From the IMG/VR virus record IMGVR_UViG_2597489870_000006, positions 1 through 57,127 of that record: DNA of 57,127 nt; one strand, written 5' to 3'. Positions 15,897-55,759 of the stretch are shown here, piece by piece. The first letter of the stretch is position 1; the number at the start of each line of letters is the position of its first letter. The position numbers and the translations under genes are program-made. The notes under the pieces were generated by a model. It worked only from the letters and a program-made list of their open reading frames with translations, ran no database searches and had not been told where the DNA came from. The stretch comes from a virus. Lineage: Duplodnaviria > Heunggongvirae > Uroviricota > Caudoviricetes.

Positions 15897-15942
15897 TGGT
15901 GCCTATAATAGGAGTCGAACCTACGACCTTCGCATTACGAAT
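15897..15942 (-). repeat. 46-bp att core: copy of the thrW 3' end (one mismatch)
   Basis: tggtgccTataataggagtcgaacctacgaccttcgcattacgaat matches 55684-55729 except one base. Confidence 0.85.
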
Positions 15943-16162
15943 TATAAGAATCCGCTTCTAATTCAAAGCATTACCCCATCAACACTGCGCTCACACGTCC
16001 CACCACATCAAAACATGTAAAGCCTTGCAAGCCATTGTGAGGCCTTATGTGTCTCAGTTTTGTCCCACTACGACCTGCACAGAAAATAAGAAAATAGCGG
16101 TGATATCAAACAGTACAGAAGTCTTTTTTCTTTCAAATGGAGAAACTGATTAACCCGTTTAA

Positions 16163-16390
16163 TTGTACTCCTCATGGGCAATCAGCAGTCCTCAGAGTAA
16201 TGGAATGGCAGAAAGGTTCGTGAAAACGATGAAGGAAGACTACATCGCGTTCATGCCGAAACCGAATGTAAGAACGGCATTGCATAATCTTGCAGTGGCG
16301 ATCGAACATTACAATGAAAACCATCCGCACAGTGCGTTGGGTTATCGCTCTCTGCGAGAATATCGACGTCAGCGGGTAACGTTAACTTAA
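16163..16390 (+). pseudogene. IS3-family (IS2-like) transposase C-terminal fragment
   Basis: [20 protein letters not shown]...[14 protein letters not shown] resembles the C-terminus of IS2-type OrfB; only about 75 aa, no upstream catalytic region. Confidence 0.6.
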
Positions 16391-16431
16391 GATACACCCC
16401 CTGTCTGGAAATAAGGGGGCAAGAACAATGA

Positions 16432-17184
16432 TCAGATTCCCTGGTGAGTAAGAATTTTACTTTCTGAACTCCTCTGAGAGTATTGACTTGGAGAAACACC
16501 AAAATAACGTCTAAATACATAAGTAAAGTATGAGACACTGGCATAACCACAGACCTTAGCTACTTTACTAATAGGATAACAACGAGTGCTGAGTAAATAT
16601 TCAGCCATTTGCATCCTCTCATCAAGTATGATCTTACTGAATGATACCCCCTCTTCTTTCAATTTCCTCTTTAGTAAACTTTCGCTGAGATATAATCTTG
16701 ATGATATATCCTTAAGACGCCATGGTGCAGATAAATCCGTATGAATAATCGTTTTAACTTTAGCCCCTGTGCTTTTCAAACATCCAAACAGAAATACTCC
16801 AAATTGTTTTTCAGAAGAAAATGCAGAGAGACATGTAAAAGCAATAGACTCATCAAAAATTTCTATGTATTCAGCACAGTGATTAGCCCAACTAATTAAT
16901 CCTTTAATTAAACTGAAGTCAGCAAAGTTTATTTTTAAATAAGATGGATATTCCCTACAATCAGAAATATCCCTTAAGTTATTAGCTTTCAAATAGCGAC
17001 TAATAAACTCAGCGCCAAAATCCGCCACTATCACTCTTTCAGGATATGTCAGGAAAAAATCTCTAGAGCTAGAGTCGACAAGTACAGATGAACCTCTCTC
17101 CAGAAACACAATCTCTTTTCCTAAATAAACATCAAAGGACTCCAAAATCAATATAACTGAACATGTAGTTGCCATATCATCCAC
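16432..17184 (-). CDS. AraC-family transcriptional regulator (250 aa, AT-rich)
   Basis: C-terminal AraC-type HTH region ...ISKVAKVCGYASVSYFTYVFRRYFGVSPSQY; low GC, flanked by AT-rich DNA. Confidence 0.75.
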   Translation of the reverse strand: MDDMATTCSVILILESFDVYLGKEIVFLERGSSVLVDSSSRDFFLTYPERVIVADFGAEFISRYLKANNLRDISDCREYPSYLKINFADFSLIKGLISWANHCAEYIEIFDESIAFTCLSAFSSEKQFGVFLFGCLKSTGAKVKTIIHTDLSAPWRLKDISSRLYLSESLLKRKLKEEGVSFSKIILDERMQMAEYLLSTRCYPISKVAKVCGYASVSYFTYVFRRYFGVSPSQYSQRSSESKILTHQGI

Positions 17185-17759
17185 CCAATTTAACTGAAAC
17201 TAGGATGAAGTATATGCATATAAAGTTCACTTTGCCAAACTTCAGTATAAAAAACCACATAAAAAATAGGGTGTGATAAAAAATACCGTAACAATAAAGC
17301 AAAGGATTATAAATTCCGTTACAGTTACAAATGATACTCAAGAAACAATTCCTTAGGAAAAACTTATTTACAGCCAATAAGTAAGACACTTATATGATAT
17401 CAAGTTTTCATAAAACATAACTAGGCTAAATAGCTTCGCCTAATACCGCTACACTTTTGCCAGCCCATGTGTGCCTCCGGGTATTGACCCCTTCTCTACG
17501 CAACTTCAGTTCCCACCACCAACTTTGCGGCAGCTTTGTAGGATCAATGTCTAAAAGAATAATGGTGACCGATAAGAAAACGACTGAATAACTGCAGATT
17601 TTCGCTCGAAATCTTCCTGTCAGATCCATAGCGAATCAAGTGCTGAATGTCACAGTATCGAACAGAAAACAGTGACGATCTAACCCTTCAAGAATATTCT
17701 ACGATTGTTCTGTTTAGGAAAAGCAAGGCGGGAAGTCGGGAGATAAGTCATTGATAAAG

Positions 17760-17821
17760 TGGCGGAGAGAGGGGGATTTGAACCCCCGGTAGAGTTGCCC
17801 CTACTCCGGTTTTCGAGACCG
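17760..17821 (-). other. tRNA-like 3' fragment (T-arm plus acceptor ending CCA), resembles the tRNA-Ser (serU-type) 3' end
   Basis: Minus-strand read ggtctcgaaaaccggagtaggggcaactctaccgggggttcaaatccccctctctccgcca; 5' half of a tRNA absent; serU assignment is from memory. Confidence 0.45.
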
Positions 17822-53069: not shown

Positions 53070-53938
53070 CTCATGTAGTTAGTTTTTCTGGCGGGAGAAC
53101 ATCCGCATATCTTGTTCACCTGATGGAAGAACAAAGAAAGGCTGGCAATAACGTCTGCTACATCTTTATGGATACCGGTTGCGAACATCCGCTGACATAC
53201 CGCTTTATCCGGGAGGTTGTGAAGTTCTGGGACATACCACTAACTGTGTTACAGGTCGATATAAATCCTGAGCTTGGGCAGCCAAATGGTTATACAGAAT
53301 GGGAGCCAAAGGATATTCAGACACGAATGCCGGTGCTTAAACCGTTTATGGACATGGTTAAAAAGTACGGCACGCCATACATCGGCGGCGCGTTCTGTAC
53401 TGACAGGCTAAAACTCATCCCTTTCACGAAATACTGCGATAACCATTTCGGGCGAGGTAATTACATCACATGGCTGGGTATTCGTGCAGACGAACCCCGT
53501 AGGCTGAAACCGAAATCGGGCGTCCGGTATCTTGCCGAGCTGTCAGATTTTGATAAGTCGGATGTTATCCGGTGGTGGCGAAAACAACCTTTTGATTTGC
53601 AAATCCCGGAGCATCTCGGGAACTGTGTTTTCTGCATCAAAAAGTCAACGCAAAAGCTGGGGCTTGCATGTAAAGACGAACCAGGTCTGATGCGAGTTTT
53701 TAATGAGCTGGTTACAGGCAAACACGTCAGGGATGGTCATCGCAGAACAGGTAAAGACATTATGTACCGTGGTCACCTGACGCTTGACGGAATTGCCAGA
53801 ATGTCTGCCAACAGCGACTACAGAAATTTGTATCAGGCGATGGTACAGGCCAGGCGATTCGATACCGGCTCGTGTTCAGAGTCATGTGAAATCTGGGGTG
53901 ATCAATTGGAATTGGAATTCGAAGAGGTAGGGGTATGA
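53060..53938 (+). CDS. PAPS reductase-like PP-loop ATP pyrophosphatase family protein (292 aa)
   Basis: PP-loop motif SFSGGRTS near the N-terminus; start overlaps the HD gene stop. Confidence 0.6.
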   Translation: MCITHVVSFSGGRTSAYLVHLMEEQRKAGNNVCYIFMDTGCEHPLTYRFIREVVKFWDIPLTVLQVDINPELGQPNGYTEWEPKDIQTRMPVLKPFMDMVKKYGTPYIGGAFCTDRLKLIPFTKYCDNHFGRGNYITWLGIRADEPRRLKPKSGVRYLAELSDFDKSDVIRWWRKQPFDLQIPEHLGNCVFCIKKSTQKLGLACKDEPGLMRVFNELVTGKHVRDGHRRTGKDIMYRGHLTLDGIARMSANSDYRNLYQAMVQARRFDTGSCSESCEIWGDQLELEFEEVGV

Positions 53939-54279
53939 CAACCGAAATTAACTACCATGCACTGCTTGAGCGCGCACGGAATAAAGTGCAGAGCATTGAG
54001 TTCGCCTTAACACAGAGTGCATTCGCTGAGATTCGCGCTGAGCTTGAAAATGATTTAGAACTGGCACGGATTGCACTGGCATCTCTGGAAGTTGAGCCAG
54101 ATGAACGCGCAGCCTATGAATTATTTATGGAAAAGCGTTTCGGTAAAACAGTCGATCGTCGGAGAGCAAAAAACGGCGATAACGAATACATGGCATGGGA
54201 TATGACTCTCGGTTGGATCGTCTGGCAGCAACGAGCTGGTATCCATTTTTCAACAATGTCACAGCAAGAGGTGAAATAA
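53935..54279 (+). CDS. hypothetical protein (114 aa)
   Basis: ORF between PAPS reductase-like gene and xis with ATGA overlaps. Confidence 0.45.
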   Translation: MTTEINYHALLERARNKVQSIEFALTQSAFAEIRAELENDLELARIALASLEVEPDERAAYELFMEKRFGKTVDRRRAKNGDNEYMAWDMTLGWIVWQQRAGIHFSTMSQQEVK

Positions 54280-54629
54280 TGGAGCCATACAGCCTCACAC
54301 TCGATGAGGCCTGTCATTTTCTCAAGATATCCAGACCGACTGCCATTAACTGGATACGCACAGGGCGTCTTCAGGCAACACGCAAAGATCCCACTAAGAA
54401 TAAATCTCCTTACCTCACAACACGACAAGCCTGCATTGCGGCTCTTCAGTCTCCGCAGCATACTGTCCAGGTGAGCGCGGGTGATGGCATAACAGAGGAA
54501 AGAAAATGTCACTCTTCCGCAGAGGTGAAATATGGTACGCCAGTTTCACATTGCCGAACGGTAAAAGATTTAAACAGTCTCTTGGAACAAAGGACAAAAG
54601 GCAGGCGACAGAACTCCATGACAAGCTAA
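54279..54629 (+). CDS. xis: excisionase, P22 Xis-like (116 aa)
   Basis: [41 protein letters not shown]; overlaps the int start in another frame. Confidence 0.75.
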
Positions 54630-55669
54630 AGGCTGAAGCATGGCGGGTCAGCAAACTTGGTGAAATACCTGATATAACGTTCGAGGAAGCGTGTGTCAGG
54701 TGGCTTGAAGAGAAAGCACATAAAAAATCACTGGACGATGACAAAAGCCGGATCGGATTCTGGCTTCAACATTTCGCAGGAATGCAACTAAGAGACATTA
54801 CTGAATCAAAAATTTATTCAGCAATGCAGAAAATGACGAACCGGCGTCATGAGGAAAACTGGAAACTCAGGGCAGAAGCATGCAGAAAAAAAGGGAAACC
54901 TGTTCCAGAATACACGCCAAAACCAGCGTCCGTTGCAACGAAGGCTACGCATCTTTCATTTATAAAGGCCCTACTAAGAGCCGCAGAGCGTGAATGGAAA
55001 ATGCTGGATAAGGCACCAATTATTAAAGTGCCTCAACCAAAGAATAAACGGATCCGCTGGCTGGAGCCCCATGAAGCACAAAGGCTGATTGATGAATGTC
55101 CGGAGCCATTAAAGTCTGTTGTTGAATTTGCACTGGCAACAGGCTTAAGACGCTCGAACATCATCAACCTTGAATGGCAACAAATAGACATGCAGCGCCG
55201 GGTGGCATGGATAAACCCGGAAGAGAGTAAATCAAACCGCGCAATTGGCGTTGCGCTGAATGATACTGCATGTCGCGTATTGAAAAAACAAATCGGGAAT
55301 CATCACCGTTGGGTATTTGTGTACAAGGAAAGCTGTACCAAACCAGACGGAACGAAAGCGCCAACAGTAAGGAAGATGCGGTATGACGCAAACACAGCCT
55401 GGAAAGCGGCGCTGAGACGGGCTGGTATTGATGATTTCAGATTTCACGACTTGAGACACACTTGGGCAAGTTGGCTGGTTCAAGCCGGAGTCCCGTTGTC
55501 AGTGTTACAGGAAATGGGAGGCTGGGAGTCTATCGAAATGGTTCGTCGATATGCTCACCTTGCACCTAATCACCTTACCGAACACGCACGGCAAATAGAC
55601 TCGATCCTGAACCCATCGGTCCCAAATTTGTCCCAGTTAAAAAATAAGGAAGGTACTAATGATGTGTAA
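54506..55669 (+). CDS. int: tyrosine integrase, P22 family (387 aa)
   Basis: [47 protein letters not shown]... near-identical to what I recall of P22 Int; ends 15 bp from thrW. Confidence 0.9.
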
Positions 55670-55683
55670 CTTATTGATTTAAA

Positions 55684-55759
55684 TGGTGCCGATAATAGGA
55701 GTCGAACCTACGACCTTCGCATTACGAATGCGCTGCTCTACCAACTGAGCTATATCGGC
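55684..55759 (-). tRNA. thrW: tRNA-Thr (thrW), attachment site of the prophage
   Basis: Reverse complement reads GCCGATATAGCTCAGTTGGTAGAGCAGCGCATTCGTAATGCGAAGGTCGTAGGTTCGACTCCTATTATCGGCACCA, a 76-nt tRNA ending CCA. Confidence 0.9.

Follow-up and report, generated by a model that had tools for sequence, protein, structure and literature searches.

At the thrW locus of enterotoxigenic Escherichia coli (ETEC) H10407, two integrative elements lie one behind the other: next to the tRNA gene a prophage of the SfV family, and beyond it a phage-inducible chromosomal island (PICI) of the EcCIMP1 family. The stretch analysed here, called the window throughout, comprises positions 1 to 57,127 of the IMG/VR virus record IMGVR_UViG_2597489870_000006 (57,127 nt). 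It corresponds to NC_017633.1 295944-353070, reverse strand, with 100% identity, and the sequence to the left of window position 1 was read from NC_017633.1 (extension L001). We consider it highly probable that the locus is a tandem array produced by two independent site-specific integrations. As an arrangement it is ordinary, a further example of element types already known, at a site already known as a hot spot: earlier work has described the EcCIMP1 PICI family and SfV-like phages in thrW, and likewise tandem arrays at tRNA genes that act as hot spots. The useful new point is a predicted cos site in the PICI.

The window holds a single tRNA gene, an intact tRNA-Thr(CGT), which we identify as thrW because proA adjoins it. 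Its last 46 nt (TGGTGCCGATAATAGGAGTCGAACCTACGACCTTCGCATTACGAAT) recur at the far end of the prophage with one mismatch, a G-to-T change at 15904. No further match with up to three mismatches was found in the window, none of 100 shuffled sequences contained any match (0/100), and no third full copy turned up at the same threshold in the 31 kb to the left. The repeat had already been noticed in a first-pass annotation of this DNA, and the search reproduces it. The same 46 bp are the published attP core of SfI, SfII, SfV, SfX and P22 (PMC3636060), and the attP of SfV carries this core with the same flanks on both sides as the two H10407 junctions. The prophage is thus bounded by the core ATTCGTAATGCGAAGGTCGTAGGTTCGACTCCTATTATCGGCACCA twice, and the thrW-side copy completes the tRNA. 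Its 387-aa integrase, which had been described as a P22-type enzyme abutting the intact tRNA, does so indeed: the ORF stops 14 nt short of the tRNA 3′ end, and its product shares 380 of 387 residues (98%) with SfV Int.

The prophage itself is complete-looking. Counting one core it measures 39,787 bp, and its modules follow one another as early, immunity, replication, Q, lysis, HNH-cos-TerS-TerL (TerS and TerL being the small and large terminase subunits), HK97-type head, contractile tail, invertible tail-fibre and moron end. RefSeq annotates int, xis, cI- and cro-like repressors, replication genes, the Q antiterminator, lysis genes, HNH, a P27-type TerS, TerL, portal, protease and capsid, followed by sheath, tube, baseplate and an invertible tail-fibre segment; the only damage in that annotation is one frameshifted hypothetical gene and one insertion sequence (IS) remnant. 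Compared with SfV, nucleotide identity is 95.6-97.4% over 64-71% of each half and reaches both core edges, and SfV, SfII, SfI and SfIV all match at ~95-97% over roughly two-thirds of the length.

To the left of the junction 46-mer lies an element of an entirely different make. Its integrase of P4-type architecture begins 166 nt from the 46-mer and reads away from it, as the first-pass annotation had stated, and the integrases of the two elements are unrelated in sequence, which bears out the claim that two unrelated elements occupy thrW in tandem. By its protein and nucleotide similarities, the left element is an EcCIMP1-family PICI, or an ‘EcCIMP1-like element’ in the sense of Pick et al., so that its earlier description as satellite-like can be made precise. 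EcCIMP1 is a 19,963-bp PICI in thrW of the commensal E. coli MP1, flanked by the repeats TCCTATTATC (Pick, Stadel & Raivio, ISME J 2025; PMC11773190); its integrase differs from that of the H10407 element at a single residue, and the alpA and PerC-family products are the same in both. In EcCIMP1, alpA was shown to be the master regulator and IntS_1 to be required for excision (PMC11773190). Among the 20 PICI proteins scanned against Pfam and PHROGs, none is a capsid, tail, lysis or terminase protein; the only virion-related matches are homologues of gp20 and gp16, as in EcCIMP1. The same scan found no homologues of psu, sid or delta, and a P4-like satellite was rejected as the identity of the island.

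The two elements had been described as sharing one 46-bp att core. Their att sites do overlap at the junction, where comparison of the sequence with other genomes places the distal att of the phage over the proximal att of the PICI; the 46-bp core, however, belongs to the phage only, and the junction 46-mer is the phage attR, which happens to contain the PICI attL core. The PICI repeat is merely the last ~19 nt of the 46-mer (TCCTATTATCGGCACCATT), and its distal copy measures 18-19 nt. These identities were set by comparing flanks with the SfV attP, the island-only genome Ec1120, the empty-site genome RCAD0514 and MP1. In RCAD0514, thrW is followed directly by TTAAAATCAAAG; in Ec1120 it is followed by the PICI and then by a degenerate third att copy, and MP1 is arranged alike. 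Extending the H10407 sequence leftward, a step that the first-pass annotation had proposed, brings this other end into view: the distal att (TCCTATTATCG-CACCATT) lies 1.7 kb left of the window edge, exactly at the empty-site boundary, where L001 19771-19789 (record ~354770) reads TTCCTATTATCG-CACCATT. Most E. coli genomes regain homology (a yagP remnant and the paoD flank) precisely at this degenerate copy, as does K-12. Because RCAD0514, Ec1120 and MP1 fix the distal boundary, the PICI repeat can be put at only ~19 nt and the unit at 17,612 bp (17.6 kb).

The proximal att of the PICI reads TCCTATTATAGGCACCATT and includes the substitution at 15904. That change is private to H10407, with the canonical base present in four other genomes that have the same tandem junction; it alters the 10-nt repeat that was reported for EcCIMP1 and leaves CACCATT untouched. 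Since island-only genomes keep GG in the proximal att copy and a single G in the distal one, PICI crossover presumably takes place within the CACCATT segment. Between the att core and int, and again ~62 nt inside the distal att (L001 19689-19709, two copies beyond the window), stands the motif TGGGGGTAY. All five of its occurrences in 49 kb, against 0.48 expected, are beside the two PICI att sites, and they are likely Int arm-type sites. Near the same proximal end, GTCTACTAAAGTC is repeated twice at 15796-15879.

The PICI runs on past the left edge of the window, and it is here that its most informative feature is found. The prophage cos region occupies the gap between the HNH and terS genes and includes the point where the SfV record starts and ends; its cosN TGCCCGCCCC equals the experimentally determined cohesive ends of SfI (PMC3636060); the ‘cos-site’ feature of the phiP27 record coincides with these 10 nt in the alignment. 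At the nucleotide level, PICI and prophage resemble each other in one ~100-nt stretch only, and that stretch is the cos region (85% identity, E = 1e-22). Within it, 49 nucleotides match perfectly: 10 of them are the cohesive end TGCCCGCCCC itself, and the other 39 flank it on the terS side. Two blocks conserved from SfV to phiP27, GGGAGGGG and GTCAAATCTCT, are likewise retained in the PICI copy and in those of EcCIMP1 and a Kluyvera PICI. We thus predict that the PICI carries an SfV-type cos, i.e. a packaging signal that matches the candidate helper next door.

Phages matching the PICI stretch come from the SfV/phiP27/ST64B group only. A scan of 5,426 E. coli genomes finds the module in 378 (~7% of complete genomes), and in species-representative genomes a 30-mer from the cos stretch detects four loci, comprising two Shigella prophage copies, a contaminant-like metagenome-assembled genome and the Kluyvera PICI. 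The podovirus Kapi1 was considered as a source of the site and rejected: it has no such sequence, and only ejection-protein genes are common to it and the PICI. In the literature searched, the two papers naming EcCIMP1 do not describe an SfV-type cos in this family; the EcCIMP1 paper mentions no cos and leaves the packaging route open (PMC11773190). MP1 contains no SfV-like prophage. In H10407, the prophage and PICI cos sites have the same orientation and are 39,168 bp apart, or 98.4% of the phage genome length. All features are collected in Table 1.

Table 1. Elements, att and cos sites and genes at the H10407 thrW locus (window positions unless marked otherwise)
Feature	Position	Strand	Evidence or remark
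tRNA-Thr(CGT), intact thrW	55684..55759	-	ARAGORN; sole tRNA in window
thrW 3′ 46 nt, core of the prophage's tRNA-proximal att site	55684..55729		exact 46-mer match
Prophage integrase, SfV/P22-att type, 387-aa tyrosine recombinase	54506..55669	+	Phage_integrase domain; SfV Int match
Excisionase-like helix-turn-helix gene of prophage	54195..54629	+	ORF list, RefSeq; position as SfV xis (int-xis layout)
SfV-family temperate myovirus prophage	15943..55683	.	39,787 bp including one core
Packaging genes	36668..39368	-	HNH endonuclease 39018-39368; P27-family TerS 38398-38892; TerL 36668-38401; Pfam HNH, Terminase_4; RefSeq
Prophage cos region, HNH-terS intergenic	38899..38996	-	cosN TGCCCGCCCC at 38943-38952
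Junction 46-mer	15897..15942	.	prophage distal att core (attR); its tRNA-3′ end holds the PICI proximal att core 15895-15913 AATGGTGCCTATAATAGGA
Candidate PICI Int arm-type sites TGGGGGTAY x3 (two direct, one inverted)	15733..15784	.	between att core and int
PICI integrase, 404 aa, P4-type architecture	14517..15731	-	Arm-DNA-bind_3, Phage_int_M, Phage_integrase; 403/404 identical to EcCIMP1 IntS_1
AlpA regulator of PICI	13662..13865	-	Pfam Phage_AlpA; WP_000035054.1, same RefSeq protein as EcCIMP1 alpA
PICI early and replication module	7528..13218	-	AntA antirepressor 12385-13218; DUF4222; Ash-family 11149-12216; small ORFs; 782-aa primase-helicase 7528-9876; Pfam, PHROGs
P22-type ejection-protein homologues in PICI	2168..7131	-	245-aa ORF, no assigned function; gp20-like 4270-5613; gp16-like, 705 aa, 2168-4285; Pfam Inj_translocase, phrog_917, phrog_770
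PerC-family regulator of PICI	1..282	-	Pfam PerC; WP_000617443.1, identical to EcCIMP1_025
PICI cos, SfV/P27 type (predicted)	L001 18244-18342 = record 353243-353341		cosN at record 353287-353296, 216-225 nt left of window position 1

How the array came about can be outlined as follows. The P22-att-type Int of the phage would recombine the 46-bp attP core with the 3′ end of thrW, regenerating the tRNA and leaving a 46-bp copy at the far end, and the P4-type Int of the PICI would use only the last ~19 nt of thrW. Probably the PICI came first and the phage then entered the tRNA-proximal site. We favour this order because SfI, in the one experimental precedent at thrW, entered the tRNA-proximal att of resident SfX (PMC3306764), even if structure alone cannot decide. 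In the reverse order, an SfV-like phage would have arrived first and the PICI later, into the distal 46-bp copy of the phage, which holds the full 19-nt target. The final structure and the junction flanks fit this equally well, as both copies offer the same PICI core; the SfI-SfX precedent goes the other way, and island-only genomes carry the same PICI at 99% identity, although neither point is decisive. We regard the reverse order as a realistic prospect, albeit the minor one. The substitution at 15904 was discarded as a clue to order, being private to H10407 with the canonical base in SfV attP. A third possibility is a degraded composite island, in which one element or the pair has decayed to an immobile remnant and the repeats are mere relics. 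The private substitution in the proximal PICI core, a stop codon in the gp20-like gene, and the IS remnant and frameshifted gene of the prophage would fit, and it is to be conceded against two working elements that the H10407 copy of the PICI may be partly defective owing to its altered att and its ejection pseudogene. Yet neither integrase shows damage, nor does xis or alpA, and each is almost the same as a functional reference; every phage module is intact in the annotation, the att pairs of the two elements and the candidate arm sites are all in place, and the substitution lies outside the presumed CACCATT crossover segment. Decay of this kind is unlikely in our view.

The tandem junction is common to at least 23 complete genomes, and in two further loci other P4-int islands adjoin the same phage end. 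One of the tandem strains, 98207 (NZ_CP173539.1 1508000-1557900), has the same thrW int, att and moron end, with an EcCIMP1-like PICI in tandem, and a terminase, portal and head that are unrelated to those of H10407; its prophage is a mosaic phage that has only the two ends in common with the H10407 prophage. In K-12, the element CP4-6 occupies the same thrW site. There, in MG1655, a full 47-nt thrW 3′ repeat bounds the end beside the yagP remnant, and intF starts at this 47-nt repeat and reads away, a geometry unlike that of both H10407 elements.

Whether the neighbouring prophage serves the PICI as a helper is a separate matter. The first-pass annotation had spoken of a helper-satellite-like pair, of which the satellite half holds and is joined by the matching SfV-type cos; the helper half is less secure, given that Kapi1 is the only proven helper of the family and that no terminase enrichment was found. 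Because cosN and 39 nt of flank in the PICI are identical to those of its neighbour, we regard the prophage as a plausible packaging helper, with the chances about even. HNH, TerS and TerL of the prophage could cleave concatemers of replicated PICI DNA for packaging, the likeliest product being dimers: two PICI units amount to 35.2 kb, or 88.5% of the 39.8-kb phage genome, and multimer packaging of a cos PICI in full-size capsids is known from EcCICFT073 (PMC6092414). A more far-reaching proposal is that EcCIMP1-family PICIs exploit two unrelated types of helper, podoviruses such as Kapi1 through their P22-type ejection genes and HNH-terminase myoviruses through the SfV/P27-type cos, and that the H10407 pair is a cis-linked helper-satellite unit from which the PICI would be packaged as cos-bounded dimers and rarely as a 39.2-kb cos-to-cos chimera. 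This we put forward tentatively, and it may well prove wrong.

Several observations weigh against a helper role. The only helper demonstrated for the family, Kapi1, is a P22-like headful-packaging podovirus without this cos, and the ejection homologues of the PICI match podoviruses rather than the neighbouring myovirus. An SfV-type terminase is not enriched among PICI carriers, occurring in at most 3 of 17 against a background of ~20%; this is a rough estimate, obtained with a chimeric query and a sample spread among the matches listed, in which a second match could be a second PICI. Tandem strain 98207 shows the same layout with a different terminase and head module, and this mismatch argues that adjacency reflects a common target site and not co-adaptation. 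A sister PICI with the same cargo sits at yicC-dinD without the cos module. Finally, sequence and Pfam comparison detected no Rpp-like TerS mimic in the PICI: the product of a 61-aa ORF just past its cos does not resemble phage TerS in sequence and gives no match in Pfam. No induction experiments on the H10407 prophage were found in the literature searched.

Taken together, these points lend substance to the view that the two elements are neighbours by coincidence, both targeting the hot spot thrW, with P22-like helpers infecting from outside and the cos-like stretch being an unused recombination scar; the other P4-int islands beside the same phage end agree with it as well. Such a scar would not readily account for a similarity confined exactly to the intergenic cos region and to nothing else of the phage, with cosN and its flank left identical. 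The blocks conserved between SfV and phiP27 are kept in three PICI copies, among them the Kluyvera one that has drifted elsewhere, and the module recurs throughout the several hundred E. coli genomes mentioned above. Moreover, Kapi1 moves EcCIMP1 only at a very low rate and by an unexplained mechanism: EcCIMP1 excises only in the presence of Kapi1, a step for which its own int and alpA are needed, then circularises and is transduced, at roughly 5e3 per ml (PMC11773190). Coincidence without a functional link still has a substantial chance, not far below an even one. A variant of the helper idea is packaging in situ, whereby terminase would start at the cos of an unexcised prophage and run through the late genes and the att junction to the PICI cos, yielding a unit-length chimera of the phage late arm and 16 kb of PICI. 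The direct orientation of the two sites, the direction of packaging (from cos into terS, toward the PICI) and a spacing close to one phage genome length would allow this. Lambdoid phages normally excise early, however, the spacing simply follows from the size of the PICI, the chimera would lack the distal att arm of the PICI, other tandem genomes are without matching cos sites and there is no direct evidence; packaging in situ strikes us as highly improbable.

Within the PICI cargo, the 782-aa primase-helicase combines a Zn-ribbon, Toprim and DUF5906 and is of a different subtype than the DUF927 primase of EcCIMP1. Among the ejection-protein homologues, the gp20-like gene (P22 gp20 being the injectosome translocase) has an in-frame stop at 4621-4623, codon 331, in H10407, where Ec1120 encodes Gln and is intact. 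The best phage match to these genes is vB_EcoP_Kapi1: when window 2168-5613 is compared with Kapi1 29086-32582, the gp20-like and gp16-like products have 75% and 41% aa identity to Kapi1_057 and Kapi1_058, respectively, in a mosaic that includes near-identical blocks. This implies that PICI and P22-like phages have probably exchanged ejection genes in the recent past. The sister PICI at yicC-dinD in other ETEC strains (NZ_LR883050.1 70463-94716) has a cargo that is 99.5% identical, a different integrase and neither the cos nor the pRiA4b module; these copies show modular swapping of both the int end and the distal end.

Alignment with Ec1120 and MP1 shows the H10407 spacer between int and alpA (~14097-14343) to be longer by ~224 bp, made up of short units of hairpin type (CGCTGACAAAGCGCAATTGCTCTTTAACA-like). 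These units sit in the upstream part of the region that served as the EcCIMP1 alpA promoter and are covered by a 129-aa ORF in RefSeq; a tandem repeat finder returned nothing for this spacer.

As for the prophage, gtrABC (or oac) O-antigen genes are not present next to its attP, and it is SfV-like but not serotype-converting. Their place is taken by a moron end (16432-18774) with the IS remnant, an AraC-family regulator (16432-17184, 38% GC) and a PD-T4-3 GIY-YIG defence gene (17950-18774). Another moron (41693-43024, 31% GC) lies between Q and the holin gene; its product, a KAP-family NTPase, has a match in PDC-S20, a candidate defence family (E = 1e-176). Each of the two elements encodes a regulator of the PerC family (1-282 and 46612-47106) and a DUF4222 protein (12210-12392 and 48034-48213). 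The EcCIMP1 counterpart of the PICI regulator, EcCIMP1_025, is reported to repress the locus of enterocyte effacement and was suggested to be an AraC-negative regulator, and the neighbouring prophage carries the AraC-family gene just mentioned.

An SfV-type cos in the EcCIMP1 family provides a concrete, testable hypothesis for the main packaging route, which the EcCIMP1 paper left unexplained, and H10407, a reference ETEC strain, naturally combines the island with its candidate helper. The PerC/ANR-like regulator in the island, which was shown to silence virulence genes, makes its spread among pathogenic E. coli of some practical interest.

Both elements have well-studied relatives. With the Shigella flexneri serotype-converting phages SfV, SfI, SfII and SfIV, the prophage has in common the 46-bp thrW core, the nearly identical Int, the cos TGCCCGCCCC, the HNH and P27-type terminase, the HK97-like head, the contractile tail and the nucleotide similarity over some two-thirds of the genome. 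Unlike them, it has no gtrABC, contains the KAP-NTPase moron as an extra and resides in an ETEC host instead of Shigella. In tandem SfI-SfX lysogens at thrW (Sun et al. 2011; PMC3306764), two elements likewise stand in series with an att core copy between them, but both are phages with the same 46-bp core and integrase type, whereas the H10407 pair has unrelated integrases and cores of unequal length. The P2-P4 pair resembles the H10407 locus in the P4-type integrase architecture, the alpha-like primase-helicase replicon, the Ash-domain protein and the helper-type cos copy of the satellite; it differs in that the PICI has no homologues of psu, sid or delta among its scanned proteins and a cos that is not of the P2 type.

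Another parallel is offered by cos-type Gram-negative PICIs such as EcCICFT073 (Fillol-Salom et al. 2018, 2019; PMC6092414, PMC6739421), which have the same int-alpA-primase layout, no capsid genes and a copy of the helper-type cos; by this parallel, multimer packaging in full-size capsids would be expected for the H10407 PICI. EcCICFT073 mimics cosQ and cosN of lambda/phi80, has a different cosB and needs Rpp to retarget phage TerS. The H10407 PICI, in contrast, has an HNH-dependent cos of the SfV/P27 type whose terS-side flank is identical to that of the phage, and no Rpp-like protein was detected in it by the comparison described above.

The closest relative is EcCIMP1 itself. It lies at the same thrW site between proA and the yagU side and in the same orientation, with a nearly identical Int, identical AlpA, DUF4222, PerC, pRiA4b-ORF3 and several small proteins, the same distal att (TTCCTATTATCGCACCATT) and the same cos-like site; in total, 55% of the H10407 element aligns to it at 93-99% identity, with both ends covered. 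The H10407 PICI is smaller (17.6 vs 20.0 kb), and its central third, i.e. primase and ejection block, is replaced: its primase is of the DUF5906 and not the DUF927 type, the set of ejection homologues is another one, and the second alpA_1 and the DUF2824 gene are missing. It further differs in the longer int-alpA spacer and its one pseudogene. Even the company kept by the two islands is comparable, in that EcCIMP1 of MP1 likewise has a second island at the same site, a remnant of the vat island where H10407 has the SfV-like prophage.

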